DNA of 64,000 bases from Mobula hypostoma (Eukaryota), in the NCBI RefSeq assembly GCF_963921235.1, contig NC_086097.1, positions 64,978,001 through 65,042,000 of the forward strand. Direction: 5' to 3'. The notes under the pieces are model-generated. The model ran no database searches. It saw only the letters and a list, made by a program, of their open reading frames with translations, and was not told where the DNA came from. Below, in pieces: positions 9,451 to 21,590 of the stretch. Both the position numbers and the translations under genes were made by a program. Each line of letters opens with the position of its first letter. Positions within the stretch are counted from its first letter, which is position 1.

Positions 9451-9867
9451 TATTATGTTATATGAGCCACTAAGATGGCAAGATCAAAATTAATTAATAA
9501 TTGTGATTTTATTTTTCAGATGGAATTTTAACTTTTGGAAGGGGAAGCACTAATGTTAATGTAAATGATAAAGATTGCATTGTCAAAATCAAATTTCCAC
9601 AATTTGTGTCATTGGTATTTTACCAAGCTGTGGTTATAGCATGACAATTTCCTTACTCTGACTCCAGCATAAGTATAATCTTAGACTCCACACTTTTTAG
9701 ATATTCAAAGGATAACACATCAAAATGCATTGTGATGCTAGCCCAGTTAATTCCATGTGAATTGCTTGTACCTGCCACAAAGAATCTTCTCTCTTTGTTC
9801 TCAGCAAGTGACATCCTTAACCTATTTGCCTCACTGGTCTTCCTGAGCTATACTTAATCCAAATTTA

Positions 9868-11470
9868 CAAATCCCATTTCCAGAAAAGTTGGGATATTTT
9901 CCAAAATGCAATAAAAACAAAAATCGGTGATATGTTAATTCACGTGAACCTTTATTTAACTGACAAAAGTACAAAGAAAAAATTTTCAATAGTTTTACTG
10001 ACCAACTTAATTGTATTTTGTAAATATACACAAATTTAGAATTTGATGGCTGCAACACACTCAACAAAAGGTGGGACAGAGTTAAAATAAGATTGAAAAG
10101 TGCACAGAATATTCAAGTAACACCGGTTTGGAAGACTCCACATTAAGCAGGCTAATTGGTAGCAGGTGAGGTATCATGACTGGGTATAAAAGTAGCGTCC
10201 ATTAAAGGCTCAGTCTTTGCAAGCAAGGATGGGTCATGGCTCACCCCTTCGTACCAAAATTCGTGAGAGAATTGTTAGTCAGTTCAAAAGGAACATTTCT
10301 CAATGCAAGATTGCAGAGAATTTAGGTCTTTCAACATCTACAGTACATAATATTGTGAAAAGATTCAGAGAATTCGGAGACATCTCAGTGCGTAAAGGGC
10401 AAGGTCGGAAACCACTGTTGAATGCAAGTGGTCTTCGAGCCCTCAGGCGGCACTGCCTAAGAAACCATCATGCTACTGTGACAATTATAGCCATCCGGGC
10501 TCAGGAGTACTTTGGAAAACCATTGTCACTCGATACAATCCGTTGCTGCATCCAGAAATGCAACTTGAAACTGTATTACGCAAGGAGGAAGCCATACATC
10601 AACTCTATGCAGAAACGCCGGCGAGTTCTCTGGGCCCGAGCTCATCTCAGATGGACCGAAAGACTGTGGAACCATGTGCTGTGTCAGATGAGTCCACATT
10701 TCAGCCAGTTTTCGGAAAAAACAGGCATCGAGTTCTCTGTGCTAAAAATGAAAACGACCATCCAGATTGTTATCAGTGAAAGGTGCAAAAGCCAGCATTT
10801 GTGATGGTATGAGGGTGCATCAGTGCCCACGGCATGGGTGAGTTGCATGTATGTGAAGGTACCATTGACTCTGAGGCGTATATTAGGATTTTAGAGAGAC
10901 ATATGTTGCCATTAAGGCGACATCTCTTCCCGGGACGTCCATGCTTATTTCAGCAGGACAATGCCAGACCACATTCTGCACGGGCTACAACAGCGTGGCT
11001 TTGTAGACACAGAGTGCGTGTGCTTAACTGGCCTGCTGCCAGTCCAGATCTATCTCCTATTGAAAATGTATGGCACATCATGAAGAGGAGAATCAGACAA
11101 CGGAGACCACAGACTGTTGAGCAGCTGAAGTCTTATATCAAGCAAGAATAGACAAAATTTCCAATTGCAAATCTACTACAATTAGTATCCTCAGTTCCAA
11201 AACAATTAAAAAGTGTTATTAAAAGGAAAGGTGATGTAACACAATGGTAAACATGCCTCTGTCCCAACTTTTGTTGAGTGTGTTGCAGCCATCAAATTCT
11301 AAATTTGTCTATGTTTACAAAATACAATTAAGTTGGTCAGTAAAACTGTTGAAAATCTTTTCTTTGTACTTTTGTCAGTTAAATAAAGGTTCACGTGAAT
11401 TAACATATCACAGATTTTTGTTTTTATTGCATTTTGGAAAATATACCAACTTTTCTGGAAATGGGGTTTG
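9868..11470 (+). mobile_element. full-length Tc1 DNA transposon (DD34E, long ~210-bp TIRs)
   Basis: TIRs 9868-~10080 and ~11257-11470 (caaatcccatttccagaaaagttggg / ccaacttttctggaaatggggtttg); TA at left, CA at right. Confidence 0.95.
10229..11250 (+). pseudogene. Tc1 transposase, disrupted (frameshift near 10684; stops near 10777, 10810 and 11149)
   Basis: MGHGSPLRTKIRERIV HTH region, GRKP, SDESTF, FQQDNARPH and SPDLSPIENVW with 34 residues between D and E. Confidence 0.93.
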
Positions 11471-11649
11471 CAAATAATAGAATAGAAAAGCAAAATATTG
11501 CAGAAGTTGGAAATCTGACATAAAAGTGTAAAATGATGCAAATAGTCAAGATATCAGGCAGCATCTGTGGAGAGAAAAAAAAAGATGTTGCCTTGTACTT
11601 GCAGCACATTCTACAGACCTTAAAGTAAATATCTTCATGGTAAATATGA

Positions 11650-11848
11650 GGAAATGTACAGATGCTGGAAATTCAAGCAACACACACAAAAAATGCTGGT
11701 GAACGCAGCAGGCCAGGCAGCATCTATAGGAAAAGGTACAGTCGATGTTTCGGGTCAAGACGAGGGTCTCAGCCCAAAACATTGACTGTACCTCTTCCTA
11801 TAAATGCTGCCTGGCCTGCTGCATTCACTAGCACTTTTTGTGTGTATA
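11650..11848. mobile_element. Penelope-derived inverted duplication (palindrome)
   Basis: gcagcaggccaggcagcatctatagg..tacagtc is mirrored by gactgtacc..cctataaatgctgcctggcctgctgc. Confidence 0.8.
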
Positions 11849-14068: not shown

Positions 14069-14715
14069 GTGAACCCTCACAAGGCGGAAGGTCCTGATGA
14101 AGTATCTGGTAAAGCTCTGAAAATCTATGCCAACCAACTAGCGGGAGTATTCAGGGACATTTTCAACCTCTCACTGCTACGGGTGGAAGTTCCCACTTGC
14201 TTCATAAAGGCAATAATTATACCAGTGCCTAAGAAGAATAATGTGAGCTGCCTTAATTACTATCGCCTAGTAGCACTCACATCAGAACTCCTGCCTCAGC
14301 AAGGACCTGGACCCATTGCAATTTGCCTATCACCACAATAGGTCAACAGCAGATGCAATCTCACTGGCTCTCCACACGGCTTTAGACCACCTGGACAACA
14401 CAAACACGTGTGTCAGGATGCTGTTCATCAACTATAGCTCAGCATTTAATACCATCATTCCCATAATCCTGATTGAAAAGTTGCAGAACCTGGGCCTCTG
14501 TACCTCCCTCTGCACCTCCCTCTGTAATTGGATCCTTGACTTCCTAACCGGAAGACCACAATCTGTGCGGATCGGTGATAACATCTCCTCCTCGCTGACG
14601 ATCAACACTGGCACACCTCAGGGGTGTGCGCTTAGCCCACTGCTCAACTCTGTGTGGCTAGGAATAGCTCAAGTACCATCTATAAACTTGCTGATGATAC
14701 AACCACTATTGGTAG

Positions 14716-15264
14716 TGTTACGTAACCGGCAACAATGAATATCAATCGAGACAGGTTATATAAAAACAACCAAACATTTATTAAACATGGATATACAATA
14801 AAAAACAAACGAAAACCTTAACCGGAAGTTAACCGCTATGCGGCCGTTCAACAAACCGTCACTCGCTACTGGTTCTTAAAGCGTTAAATGCGAAAACAGT
14901 TCTTAAAGCGGTAAAGTCAGATACAGTTCTTAAAATGGTAAATTCGAAAGTCCAACAGATTTATACGTTCAACTGGGAGAGATTTCTCTGGAGAAGGACT
15001 TCTTTATAGACACGTATAAATCTGTTGGACTTTCGAATTTACCATTTTAAGAACTGTATCTGACTTTACCGCTTTAAGAACTGTTTTCGCATTTAACGCT
15101 TTAAGAACCAGTAGCGAGTGACAGTTTGTTGAACGGCCGCATAGCGGTTAACTTCCGGTTAAGGCTTTCGTTTGTTTTTTATTGTTTATCCCTGTTTAAT
15201 AAATGTTTGGTTGTTTTTATATAACCTGTCTCGATTGATATTCATTGTTGCTGGTTACGTAACA
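14716..15264. repeat. fold-back palindrome of LTR 3' end: 253-bp arms (14716-14968 / 15012-15264), 43-nt spacer
   Basis: left arm is the reverse complement of the right arm with ~5 mismatches; both match 3' LTR 20266-20517. Confidence 0.95.
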
Positions 15265-15271
15265 TAATTTA

Positions 15272-15288
15272 TGGGAGCTCGGCCAGGA
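15272..15288 (+). promoter_or_regulatory. primer binding site, tRNA-Pro-like
   Basis: tgggagctcggccagga vs TGGGGGCTCGTCCGGGA, 7 nt after the LTR-terminal CA. Confidence 0.75.
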
Positions 15289-15396
15289 GATGTTCCGATT
15301 TTCAGTTTAAGTGCTGGTAATTGCCATTTTGATTTGGAAAAGGGAAATACCCATTTTTTTTTAGTTTGATTGGTGTGTGAGTGGTATTCGGCAACA

Positions 15397-16984
15397 ATGA
15401 ATGTTGACGAGTTTATGGATACACCTGACCCGGTGTCTTTAGTGAATGCGAGAAAACCTGAGGTATTGGAGATTGCTAGGAAGTTGGATATTAAGGGAAT
15501 TATGAAGAATACCACAAAGGCTTTAATACAAAGAAAAATTGCTGAGTATTATATTAGTTTGAAAACGTTTGATGATGAGGTGTTAGATAGGTCTCCAATG
15601 AGTAATCTGGAAATGCAGTTACATCTTGAACAAATAAAGTTAAAGCAATTAGAAGCTGATTTGGAAAGAAGTCGGTTAGAAGCTGAAAATAAACAGAAGG
15701 AATTCGAGGCTAGAGGGGCCCATAAAATAAGGGAATTTAAAGAAAGAGAAGCTGAAAACCAGAGGAAATTTGAGCTAGAGATGAAGAAATTAAAGTCTGG
15801 GAATCAGTCTTCTGGTTCTAAGAAACAGTTTATTGCTAGTCGTGAGGTTACTTTGGCTCCTCCATTTAATGAAGCTGAAGTGGACAAATACTTCCAGCAT
15901 TTCGAAACTATTGCTCTGAGATTAAAGTGGCTGAAAGACCAATGGCCAGTGATGTTACAAAGTGTAATTAAAGACAAGGCACAACAAGTTTATACAGCTT
16001 TAAATGCAGAGCAAGCACTGGATTATGATATTGTTAAACAGCATATATTAAAGGCATATGAGTTGGCTCCGGAAGCATATAGAGAAAGATTCAGAAATTT
16101 GAAGAAATCAGTGGAAAAAACTTATGTGGAATTTGCCTATGAGAAATCTGTGTGTTTTGAGAGATGGGTTTCCTCTAAAAATGTGAATAGGGAGTATAAT
16201 AAATTAAAAGAGTTGATTTTACTGGAGGAATTTAAAAGGAGCATTCCAGTAGAAGTGAGAACATACTTAAATGAAAGGGACACTGCTACATTGCAGGAGA
16301 CTGCTAAATTAGCTGATGAGTATGCTTTAATTCATAAGAAATAAATTTTCTCCAGGTAGAACTTTTAAAAGGAAAAATAGCACAGAGAGTCAAGGTAAAC
16401 CAGAAATTAAACCTGAAGTTAGTGAGAAAGGTAAGGATGAAGGGAGACATGTGAAGGAAAGACATTTTGGTATTATTTGTAATTATTGTAAGAAACCTGG
16501 CCATGTAGTAGCTAATTGCTTTCATTTGAAAAAGAAAGAGAAAGAAGCCGTCCCAGATGCTTGTGTGCAGCATATTGAAACACCTGTAAATTCACAGGGT
16601 TTAGAAAATACTAATAAAGACGTGTCAGAGTCTGACCAAGTTAAGAAAGGATATGAGACTTTTATAACAGAAGGATTTGTATCCTTGAAAGAAGGATCCA
16701 ATTCAGTACCAATAAGAATACTTAGAGATACTGGAGCTTCTCCATTACTAATATTAGACAGTATGCTAAAGTTTAGTGATGAGTCTGACATTGGTGAGGT
16801 AAATTATATAAGAGGAGTTGGGAGTGCCGTTATGCCAGTACATTTACATAGAGTAACTTTAAGGTCAGGATTAGTTACAGGGGTTGTTAAAGTAGGATTA
16901 CAATCTAGTTTACCTGTGAGTGATGTTTCTCTTTTGTTAGGAAATGATTTAGCAGGTGGACAAGTTTTTCCTGAAGTACAATAA
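15397..16984 (+). pseudogene. Gmr1 gag (SCAN-like capsid CTD, CCHC knuckle) and protease; frameshift near 16340
   Basis: ILKAYELAPEAYRERFR..LILLEEFKRSIP..AKLADEY; CNYCKKPGHVVANC; ILRDTGAS..LLLGNDL. Confidence 0.9.
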
Positions 16985-17062: not shown

Positions 17063-18451
17063 TTGATGTACAGGATGAGGTTGTTACCCATGACTGTTCA
17101 AGATTCGAATTTTGAGGATGTATCAGAAACTTTCTTACCTACATTATTTGATCAGAATTTTGGTGGTAAGTCTGACCAGGAAGATTTGACTTTATCGCAG
17201 AAGGAGATGATAGCAGAGCAGGGTAGAGATCCTGAGATAGTTAAATTGAAAGAACAAGCTCTTCCAGATAGTGAAATTGAAAAAGTACCAGTAGGATATT
17301 ATTTTGAAAAGGGAGTATTAATGAGAAAGTCGAGATCGCCTACAATTCCTGCTAATGAGGAATGGGAGGTTAATCATCAGGTAGTGGTTCCTAAATTTTA
17401 TTGAAATGAGATTTTAACTATGGCTCATAGTATACCTTTGGGTGGTCATTTAGGTGTAAAGAAAACTATGAACAAGATTTCTAAACATTTTTATTGGCCT
17501 AGTTTAAGAAAAGATGTGGTGACATTATGTAGAATGTGTCATATGTGTCAAATTGTGGGTAAACCTAATCAAGTTACTCCAGTGGCTCCACTGCAACCAA
17601 TTCCAGTATTTGGTGAGCCGTTCTGAAAAATCATTGTGGACTGTGTAGGTCCTTTGCCAAAAACTAAAACTGAACATCAATATTTATTAACTATTATGTG
17701 CACAGCATCTAGGTTTCCAGAGGCAGTACCTCTTAGGAATATAACAGCCAATACTGTGACAAAGGCTCTTATAAAATTCTTTACTTATTTTGGGTTGCCT
17801 AAGGAAATACAACTGGATCAAGGTAGTAATTTTACGTCTGGATTGTTTCAGCAGATAGTTTATAAACTGGGAGCAAAATGGATTATTTCATCAGCCTATC
17901 ATCCAGAATCACAAGGAGCCTTGGAGAGATTTCATTCTACATTAAAAACTATGATTAGGACATATTGTGTGGAAAATGAAAAGGACTGGGATGAAGGTAT
18001 ACATTTACTACTTTTTGCAGTAAGGGAAGCAGTACAGGAATCATTAGGTTTTAGTCCTTTTGAACTTGTGTTTGGGCATAGAATTTGAGGACCTTTAGCT
18101 TTGTTGAAGGAGCAGTGGATTAGTAAAGAGGTACACACTAATTTGCTAGATTATGTTTTAAAATTTAAAGAAAGATTATATAAAGCTTGTAGCTTGGCCA
18201 AGGAAAATTTAAAATTGGCTCAAGAGAAGATGAAGACTTGGTATGATAAGGAAGCTAGGATGAGGTTACTTAAGCCTGGAGATAAGGTGTTGGTTCTTTT
18301 CCCAATGCAAACGAACCCATTACAAGACAAATTTCATGGTCCTTATGAGATTAAATCTAAGTTAAATGGTGTGGATTATGTAATTAAAAACCCCAGATCG
18401 AAGAAAGACAACAGAGCTGTGTCATATAAATATGATAAAACTGTATTATGA
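17063..18451 (+). pseudogene. Gmr1 integrase (HHCC, DDE, GPY/F), several stops
   Basis: AHSIPLGGHLG..CRMCHMC; DCVGP..DQGSNF..QGALERFH; FHGPYEI. Confidence 0.92.
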
Positions 18452-19451
18452 GAGAGAAGCTGCTACTATGACTGTTGTGATCAATAATGAGTCTGACCTT
18501 GATAAAAACTTCATGGTTGATTCATCTGAAACTCATTTTAAACCCAATATTATTTCAGCCAGGTTACCAAATTCAAAAATTCTAGAAAATATTGATGAAA
18601 AATTAGCTCATTTACAGCCACAGCAGAGAGAGCAGATGAAACAATTAATTTTTAAATATAGAGATTTATTTCCAGTTGTTCCTAGAAGAACCACCGTAGC
18701 TACACATGATGTAGATGTTGGAGATGCAAAACCCATAAAACAACATCCATATCGAATGAACAGGGAAAAATGTGAACTTGCTGAACAAGAAATTAAGTAT
18801 ATGTTAGAGAATGATATTATTAGACATTCTAATTTGAATTGGAGTTCACCGTGTGTTATGGTGCCTAAGCCAGACAATAGTATTAGGTTTTGTACAGATT
18901 ACAGGAAGGTGAATGCTGTGACAAAAACTGATGCATATCCAATCCCTAGGGTAGTTGGTTGTGTGGATAAAGTTGGACAAGCCAAATTCCTTACAAAAAT
19001 TGATTTGTTAAAAGGTTATTGGTGTGTTCCATTGACTGATAGAGGTAGAGAGATTTCAGCATTTGTAACCCCATCTGGGTTATATGAATATAATGTTCTT
19101 CCATTGGGGCTGAAGAATGCACCAGGTACTTTTCAGAGGATGATTAATAGTGTGATTCAGGGATTAAAAGATACAGATGCCTATATTGATGATTTAGTTA
19201 TAGGAAATAATACGTGGAAAGCACATATTACTGCGGTGGAGAAACTATTTGAGAGACTTTCAAAAGCTAACTTAACTATTAACTTAGCTAAAAGTGAATT
19301 TTGTCATGCCACTGTGACTATTAAGGAAAAGGGTTAAGGAACTCAAACTCCAATTTAGTAACACAGTTTAATGTTACAGGAGTACAATATTTTGATCACT
19401 CATTTTAAGGGTAAAGATAACCTGATCGCTGATTGTTTATCTAGGTGTTAA
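18432..19451 (+). pseudogene. Gmr1 reverse transcriptase followed by only the C-terminal tip of RNase H
   Basis: PIKQHPYR..FCTDYRKVN..IDLLKGYW..YIDD..EFCHATVT, then SLMLQEYNILITHFKGKDNLIADCLSRC*. Confidence 0.9.
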
Positions 19452-19650
19452 ATGTACAATGAAAATTTTTTTTGGAGTGGTATTTTAACATTTGTAACAC
19501 TCCTACTGTATATTCATTTGTAAAGTGCTGAAAGATAAGACTGTATATATTGTGTATGTTGTAAATTTTATACCTTTGTATTTTTTTTGTGTAAGTTATT
19601 AATTGTTAAAATTTTGCTCTTTAAGAGACCAAATTTTTTTTGGAGGGAGG

Positions 19651-20517
19651 TGTTATATACCTCAAGGAGATCTTGTGAGAATGATGTAGTGGCCTTTTGG
19701 AGGTCACCTGATGTAATTTTCCCGCCAATGTGAGGTCACGTGATGACATGTTCACCACAGGTATATAAGGAAAGACCTCAGGTGACACAGTTAGTTTTTA
19801 GTTTTTAGTTTTCCAACTAGAACGTTAATGTGTCTCCATTTCTGTTGCATATTTGTCTTATGATGCAGTTTCATTTTTAAAATGGAGTGTTACGTTCTGT
19901 TGCAAGGTACAATAGTGCTGGACTGGCAATTTTTGCTAAATGTGTTGATGTACCTTTTTCCAGTACTATGGGAGAGTGAAGACTTTATCGAAGTTCAGGA
20001 CCCGAAAGATTAAGAGAAGTTGGTATCTTTCGACAGTTTAACAAAGGATCGACCTTATTGAGTCTTCGTTGAAGAAGTAGTGACCTGCATCGAAGATAAC
20101 TCTTGCCAAAAGAGCAAGGAAGTTCATGCAAAGGTTTGCTCTCTAGAAATTAAAGTCAGTTGTTTTAAGCCATTTATATCCTGCATTGTGAATCCTTTGG
20201 ACAGAACCAACAGGAAAGTCGCATCTATGAAGAAATCCTTCTCCAGAGAAGTATCTCCCAATTGAATGTATAAATCTGTTGGACTTTCAAATTTACCATT
20301 TTAAGAACTGTATCTGACTTTACTGCTTTAAGAACTGTTTTCGCATTTAACGCTTTAAGAACCAGTGCCGAGTGACAATTTGTTGAACGGCTGCATAGCG
20401 GTTAACTTCCGGTTAAGGTTTTCGGTTTTTTTAAATTGTTTATCCGTGTTTATAAATGTTTGGTTGTTTTTATATAACCTGTCTCGATGGATATTCATTG
20501 TTGCCGGTTACATAACA
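19651..20517 (+). repeat. 3' LTR of Gmr1 element (867 bp)
   Basis: preceded by PPT tggagggagg; starts tgttatatac, ends tacataaca; TATA-like gtatataagg at ~19761. Confidence 0.92.
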
Positions 20518-21590
20518 TAATTGTAGAATCTCAAGTGGTGACAAGAAGGCATACAGGAGCGAGATATGCCAACTAGTGGAGTGGTGCCACAGCAACAACC
20601 TGGCACTCAACGTCAGTAAGATGGAAGGGCTGAACTAGCCACACAGTTATGTGCATATAGAGAGTAGAGCAGTGGATTAAGCACACACTCTTGAGGTGTG
20701 CCAGTGTTGATCGTCAGCGAGGAGGATATGTTATCACCAATCCGCACAGATTATGGTCTTCCGGTTAGTAAGTTGAGGTCCCAATTGCAGAGTGAGGTAC
20801 AGATGCCCAGGTTGTGGACTTCAGGAAGGGTAAGATGAAGGAACACATCCTCATGGAGGAATCAGAAGTGGAGAGAGTGAGCAGTTTCAAGTTTCTGGGT
20901 GTCAAGATCTCTGAGGATCTAACCTGGTCCCAACATATCGATGTAGTTATAAAGAAGGCAAGATTGTGGCTATACTTCATTAGGAGTTTGAAGAGATTTG
21001 GCATGTCAACAAACACACACAAAAAATTCTATAGGTATACCATGGAGAGCATTCTGACAGGCTGCAACACTGTCTGGTATGGCGGAGGGGCTACTGCACA
21101 GGACTGAAAGAAGCTGCAGAGGGTTGTAAATCTAGTCAGCTCCATCTTGGGGACCAGCCCACAAAGTACCCAGGACATCTTCAGGAAGTGGTGCCTCAGA
21201 AAGGCAGCGTCCATTATTTAAGGACCTCCAGCATCCAGGGCATGCCCTTTTCTCACTGTTACCATGAGGTAGGAGGTACAGAAGCCTGAAGGCACACACT
21301 CAGCAATTCAGGAACAGCTTCTTCCCCTCTGCCATCCAATTCCTAAATGGACATTGAACCCATGAACACTACCTCACCTTTTTTAATATACAGTATTTCT
21401 GTTTTTTGCATGTTTTAAAAAATCTATTCAATATATGTATACTGTAATTGATTTATTTATTTATTTATTTATTATTATTATTTTTATTTATATTTTTCTC
21501 TTCTATATTATGTATTGCATTGAACTGCTGCTGCTAAGTTAACAAATTTCACGTCACATGGCGGTGATAATAAACCTGATTCTGATTCTG

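Follow-up and report, generated by a model that had tools for sequence, protein, structure and literature searches.

Here we describe an inverted duplication that stands in place of the 5' LTR in a Gmr1-like retrotransposon of Mobula hypostoma, at 14716..15264 of the 64,000-nucleotide stretch analyzed (the window). That the fold-back is a real, single-copy feature of the assembled sequence was confirmed. As to its origin, we lean on balance towards its having formed in reverse transcription, before integration, when a minus strand would have snapped back on itself, been completed with the help of a second RNA and been integrated by two U5 ends.

In place of two direct full LTRs, the element has a 5' LTR of 253 nt preceded by an inverted copy of the LTR's final ~295 nt (LTR 574-867). 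This geometry had been proposed, together with most of the features below, by an earlier inspection of the letters alone (the sequence-only reading), and it holds. The two arms align without gaps, are identical at 248 of 253 sites, and enclose a loop of 43 nt (Table 1); the predicted hairpin is far more stable than chance allows (z = -56 against 100 shuffles). The estimate of about five differences between the arms is exact, all five falling within the outer 142 bp (P 0.056), and that of about 15 between either arm and the element's own 3' LTR becomes 16 differing sites and a 1-nt gap upon alignment. The conserved TATA region (LTR 112) is missing from the left end, both ends of the element are of the U5 type, and each arm contains a poly(A) signal. 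The inversion ends precisely at the terminal CA of the LTR, where the host LINE resumes with a 4-bp target site duplication (TSD), and the suggested template switch at a microhomology agrees with the three bases ACG found at the junction. The left arm, right arm, and 3' LTR contain 15, 13, and 10 CpGs, respectively. Thus the arms do keep CpGs lost by the 3' LTR, but the effect is mild: of the 13 CpGs of the lineage the arms retain 12 and 10, the 3' LTR 9, and eight relatives 4-13.

Table 1. Features of the fold-back element, in positions of the window
Feature	Position	Strand	Remarks
Left TSD, GTAG	14712..14715	+	inside host LINE; 4-nt empty-site overlap; LINE RT frame 14274-14738
Left arm	14716..14968	-	inverted last 253 nt of LTR (3' part of R, poly(A) signal, U5); ends at terminal CA
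Single-copy loop, 43 nt	14969..15011	-	extends inverted LTR copy to ~LTR 572; 4 private changes
Fold-back junction, 3-nt microhomology ACG	15012..15014	+	
Right arm, last 253 nt of 5' LTR	15012..15264	+	minority haplotype at 15113, 15114, 15124, 15138; AATAAA 15198-15203
LTR-to-PBS spacer, 7 nt	15265..15271	+	
Decayed primer-binding site (PBS)	15272..15291	+	variant common to L202 and L209
gag with SCAN-like capsid domain, stop-to-stop frame	15370..16344	+	PF02023, E 1.2e-11
Integrase core fragment (rve), upstream of RT	17627..18088	+	PF00665, E 1.3e-13
RT fragment (RVT_1)	18384..19337	+	PF00078, E 8.8e-30
Polypurine tract	19642..19650	+	
Complete 3' LTR, 867 bp	19651..20517	+	TATA box 19762-19768; common haplotype at 20367, 20368, 20378, 20392, unlike arms
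Retained spacer bases TAATT	20518..20522	+	incompletely processed right end
Right TSD, GTAG	20523..20526	+	

The carrier is classified by its domains as a dead Gmr1-like LTR retrotransposon insertion and an aberrant member of that group. Profile matches occur in the order SCAN-type gag, integrase core, RT, and integrase upstream of RT is what we take to be the diagnostic Gmr1-like arrangement; with the full-length 3' LTR, these domains bear out the Gmr1 assignment of the sequence-only reading. The PBS, presumably of the tRNA-Pro type, is polymorphic by lineage, the variant of this element recurring in the copies L202, L209, L150, and L218. The SCAN domain is described as related to the Gmr1-like gag capsid (PMC4592553). 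The coding region is split into separate frames and, near 19320, is ~0.5 kb shorter than in several relatives. The private load of the internal region, 1.41% against a mean of 2.05%, is the third-lowest among 60 copies, a figure biased low because the copies were projected on the fold-back element; it suggests that the element was inserted late. Private changes are spread evenly along the internal region (7-12 per 400 nt), and a younger replacement tract beside the right arm was rejected on this ground.

At the insertion site, the duplication GTAG is genuine: in each of the two other host-LINE copies that extend across it (2/2), the 4-nt GTAG overlap is seen with nothing else lost. The TSD is intact, but its position requires one correction, as the right copy is separated from the terminal CA of the 3' LTR by TAATT, the first five of the seven spacer bases. 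An exact 4-bp TSD is found in 16 of 27 intact relatives, and spacer bases are kept at none of 37 intact 3' LTR ends of relatives. A genome-wide search for the spacer-retention pattern gave four matches, a chance-level yield (five for a control pattern); two of them (L229 and L230) look like TSD coincidences, leaving the fold-back locus and the aberrant, 5'-truncated insertion L221. The latter (L221:3970-9480) is joined to a different point of its own host LINE, and its 3' end, with the spacer bases kept and a 3-nt overlap with the target, has the form of a repair-type insertion. Around the fold-back element, the host LINE appears to flip orientation ~130 nt right of the insertion, and an inverted LINE segment (143 nt, 88%) lies on either side, at 14507-14651 and 20661-20803.

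A search for the junction throughout the genome, suggested by the sequence-only reading, indicates that the structure is unique. The junction pattern has two matches in 3.5 Gb (a control pattern has one), and the second, L031, lies in unrelated DNA and is a chance match; the fold-back as a family trait was rejected. Only one of 106 distinct PBS-linked 5' LTR ends adjoins an inverted LTR, namely the fold-back element itself; each of these ends has at least 900 nt upstream, and they include 90 of the matches to the LTR end plus PBS (100 listed of 111 in total) as well as further copies. Neither these ends nor the other junction match revealed a replicating fold-back subfamily, with one junction at several loci. 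The family has at least 1365 U5 ends genome-wide, most of them outside the examined sample, and among the 94 U5-end matches listed for contig C1 only the fold-back pair, as judged by eye, lies head-to-head within 2 kb. The uniqueness thus refers to 106 PBS-linked 5' ends and 94 matches on C1, in which fold-backs without an internal region are poorly covered.

Several other rearrangements were met in these searches. A candidate second fold-back, L004, was rejected as a solo LTR nested in an opposite-strand LTR; at L004:900-2603 the solo LTR was inserted into a 5' LTR of its own family that runs on the opposite strand, ~30 nt from that LTR's end, which gives an 800-bp tail-to-tail inverted repeat. 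A small inversion of LTR bases 23-59 occurs within a 3' LTR (L142:1905-1941), the 5' LTR of L137 holds a 448-bp, 96% palindromic insert, possibly a MITE, and in L146 a polypurine tract precedes the PBS-linked LTR, as in a tandem element with a shared internal LTR. In the window itself, 9863-11475 is a Tc1/mariner transposon whose transposase is broken and whose terminal inverted repeats are 219 bp long (96%). At 11682-11845, a common short repeat occurs twice head-to-head, forming an inverted repeat with 80-bp arms that are 4 nt apart.

When the fold-back arose can be judged from the variants of its arms, once those that were inherited are separated from those that are private. The sequence-only reading had taken the arms' greater distance from the 3' LTR than from each other as a sign that the fold-back formed after insertion or that the arms were homogenized by conversion. 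However, 16 differences between an arm and the 3' LTR are normal for this family, because ordinary 5'/3' LTR pairs differ on average at 15.3 of the last 253 sites (range 5-24; the 37 of 60 elements with both ends complete). Where both arms differ from the 3' LTR, comparison with 102 close copies shows that it is mostly the arms that carry the common letter, the change having occurred in the 3' LTR. The exceptions are LTR sites 717, 718, 728, and 742, where the arms carry linked minority letters and the element's own 3' LTR the common ones. All four minority letters occur jointly in 8 of the 168 other copies compared, among them the two LTRs of L202; since the arms served as the search query, this sample is enriched for arm-like copies. 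The four letters shared by the arms are therefore inherited, not private.

The remaining changes were counted in 224 columns, with six lineage sites and a poorly aligning T-run excluded. The left arm has two private changes, the right arm four, and the 3' LTR five, in addition to three further differences of the 3' LTR in and beside the T-run; the family load over the same columns averages 10 (range 2-24, 134 copies), and the arms may be mildly short of changes. None of the private changes is clearly common to both arms, site 796 being off-consensus in both but by different letters. A fold-back formed at one third of the element's age, as the distances used by the sequence-only reading would imply, predicts ~5.5 arm-shared private changes (Poisson P ~0.004 for none, 0.03 if site 796 is counted). 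This result argues that the duplication dates from the insertion or soon after, and with private counts this even conversion between the arms is not needed; the gap between the two distances is explained by the difference in inherited haplotype together with decay of the 3' LTR itself. In the loop, by contrast, there are four private changes in 43 nt versus a family mean of 1.07 (four or more in 5 of 134 copies), and the arms have 6 in ~460 positions versus 4 in 44 for the spacer between them (Fisher P 0.007). This imbalance suggests that the hairpin promoted mutation of its loop or that the arms were to some extent repaired from each other, the counts being too small to decide.

The haplotype difference between the arms and the 3' LTR points to two templates. 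In 27 intact relatives, the two LTRs of an element always agree at the non-CpG sites 717, 718, and 728; these relatives are the 27 of 47 pairs that passed an 83% identity cut, and only five carry a minority letter, all five in both LTRs. Upstream of LTR 700, the 3' LTR resembles the minority-haplotype copy L008 (a weak tree support of 98/52; the tree of LTR 1-700 is mostly unresolved), and the PBS variant is also that of L202. In the simplest picture, the last ~150 nt of the 3' LTR would have come from a second RNA, and the rest of that LTR, the body, and the arms from the first. This family is a recombinant mosaic, as co-packaging of mixed RNAs would predict, so that mixed templates were routine. 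Recombination between co-packaged family members within R has been shown for Onsen (PMC5668417). A later ectopic conversion limited to a short stretch of the 3' LTR is possible and would yield the same discordance.

Under the reverse-transcription origin that we prefer, a tRNA-primed minus strand on RNA A would have halted ~296 nt into the LTR, near LTR 572, and its 3' end would have paired with a 3-nt match 43 nt back. Reverse transcriptase could then have extended this end, with the strand itself as template across U5, the spacer, and the tRNA, rebuilding the right arm and a PBS tail. In the manner of an ordinary second strand transfer, the new tail would have annealed to a full-length minus strand that owed its U5 end to priming on another co-packaged molecule, RNA B, and completion of both strands would have produced a linear DNA with a U5 end on each side. 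Integrase would have joined both ends with the family's 4-bp stagger, the left one trimmed at CA and the right one keeping five of the seven spacer bases. With the upstream promoter gone, transcription from the element's own 5' end would probably have been impossible, and the copy would have decayed since.

The top strand of the left arm indeed reads like a tRNA-primed minus strand: the inverted copy starts at the primer-proximal end of the LTR and turns at a microhomology with a short loop. Because this scheme involves two minus-strand primings, identical arms are expected and a different 3' U5 end is allowed; the arms do appear identical at birth, and the 3' U5 end possibly comes from a second RNA (the control, with five informative pairs, is weak). 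We infer that one accident covers four facts, namely the two U5 ends, the intact TSD, the identical arms with a discordant 3' LTR, and the abnormal right end. The turn does not lie at the 5' end of the transcript, where strong-stop DNA would end: the TATA box at LTR 112 is conserved in both subfamilies (36/51 and 83/134), which places the turn inside R, the start site being located by the TATA position alone. A TATAAA at LTR 619, at the start of each arm, was rejected as a promoter, as it is not conserved across subfamilies (3/51 versus 117/134). Besides this position of the turn and the dead-end status of self-primed products in HIV-1 (PMC6088434), further points count against a snap-back. 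It is a single case (1/106), with no recurrence in its support; the model does not account for the trimming of only one of the two U5 ends at CA; and the possibly under-mutated arms and over-mutated loop hint at later, hairpin-related repair.

The route put forward by the sequence-only reading, in which two template switches during replication later reshaped a normal provirus, is in our opinion unlikely, if still credible. One switch would have occurred at a 6-nt match between the start of the LTR and the end of the inverted LTR, the other at ACG, with 614 bp deleted and the LTR end duplicated in inverted orientation. The first six bases of U3 are the same as the first six of the inverted U5 end, which makes the left junction compatible with such a switch, and the route keeps the TSD. 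In addition, the arm-arm distance of 5 equals the bottom of the 5'-3' range, and three other copies have 5' ends that begin at an internal TGTT, though without a TSD. Two of these, L233 on contig C45 and L234 on contig C1, are unlinked and both 5'-truncated at LTR 787, and the third, L235, starts at TGTT just beyond the primer site; these truncations may mark a recurrent break or a cryptic end. Nevertheless, the arm-shared mutations predicted from that reading's own numbers are missing, and the retained spacer and the discordant haplotype have to be added as two further rarities, each independent of the other; the route would need both an early date and a separate short-tract conversion of the 3' LTR.

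Somewhat less probable again is an origin at the integration stage, in which integrase would have fixed one U5 end, or the U5 ends of two cDNAs, and host repair would have made the hairpin and joined the rest. Proviruses with one aberrant end, sometimes with extra viral DNA in either orientation, are documented in PMC5041404; the unprocessed right end fits an end untrimmed by integrase, and L221 is an example of a repair-type join within the same family. Such ends are, however, described in that source as usually accompanied by large duplications or deletions, and here the TSD is exactly 4 bp; moreover, the two-donor version predicts a right arm equal to the 3' LTR and a different left arm, the reverse of what is observed.

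An assembly or polishing artefact, by a chimeric fold-back read or by homogenization of the arms, is very improbable although palindromes are error-prone in assembly and the junction is known from the assembly alone, as the arms differ at five sites and have a haplotype unlike that of the local 3' LTR, the loop has private changes, and the inversion stops exactly at the terminal CA, followed by host LINE with a 4-bp TSD. In public data, the 4 of 24 listed runs that were compared with 14300-15060 consist of contigs, dominated by pieces from other LINE and LTR copies, and none of the listed pieces spans either junction.

The sequence-only reading further proposed that the hairpin acts as a silencer of its family. 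The physical premise is sound, for the computed fold indicates an inverted repeat able to form long, near-perfect dsRNA if both arms are transcribed. For the role itself the analysis gave no positive evidence: the promoter region is deleted from the left end, and only transposon-type domains were found in 20 of 24 long frames scanned, with no host gene to supply read-through, a scan that short exons would escape (a GDSL-like match among these frames is, we assume, LINE ORF1). Every sampled copy of the family is decayed: each of the 37 LTR pairs has at least five differences in 253 sites, and private changes amount to 1.2-3.6% in all 59 internal regions besides that of the fold-back element. 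A past or present silencing role thus seems very doubtful to us. We give equally little credence to its fullest form, in which a self-primed intermediate was rescued as a two-U5 insertion late in the family's burst, read-through from the flank made a polyadenylated 253-bp hairpin, and small RNAs helped to shut the family down. If silencing were real, a retrotransposon would have made its own Mu killer; unless small RNAs of the hairpin exist, the biological effect of this single dead copy is probably nil.

If the snap-back scheme is right, the locus is a germ-line fossil of a minus strand that folded back and was finished with a second RNA as template, and two U5 ends are acceptable to integrase. 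Further cases could then be sought by a simple signature: arms identical to each other, a 3' U5 end that disagrees with them, and an ordinary TSD. In any event, dating by arm-to-LTR distances requires that inherited and private variants be sorted first. No two-U5 fold-back provirus was found in the literature searched, mostly main texts outside the subscription journals.

Among known systems, Gmr1-like Ty3/Gypsy elements share with this one the SCAN-like capsid, integrase before RT, the PBS, the polypurine tract, TG..CA LTRs, and a 4-bp TSD, but it differs from them in the fold-back that replaces the 5' LTR, the two U5 ends, and a right end not trimmed to CA. Complex LTR retrotransposon insertions attributed to template switching (Sabot and Schulman 2007, PMC1950507; bioRxiv 10.1101/452573) are similar in their abnormal structure under one TSD, its attribution to events before integration, and LTRs of one element that may have different parents; they contain three direct LTRs, whereas here the extra copy is inverted, and the word "inverted" is absent from the main text of the latter report. 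The aberrant retroviral integrations of PMC5041404 likewise combine one normal with one abnormal end and differ in the host rearrangements noted above. The Y-chromosome palindromes, for which PMC3723533 describes ancestral-biased arm-to-arm conversion, also have arms less diverged than their spacer; here the arms measure 253 bp, and a hypermutable loop would also account for the counts, with no conversion. Maize Mu killer, as presented in PMC1563492, is also an inverted duplication of a transposon end that forms long dsRNA if read through, but it makes hairpin RNA and silences an active element, whereas the fold-back is known from sequence alone. Finally, HIV-1 minus-strand strong-stop DNA self-primes in vitro, and its products are termed dead ends and reported as undetected in endogenous reactions (PMC6088434). 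There, too, the growing minus strand turns back at its 3' end, whose extension then gives a hairpin. The HIV-1 turn lies at the cTAR hairpin of the full strong-stop product; here it lies in the middle of R at a 3-nt match, and the product would have been completed and integrated in the germ line.
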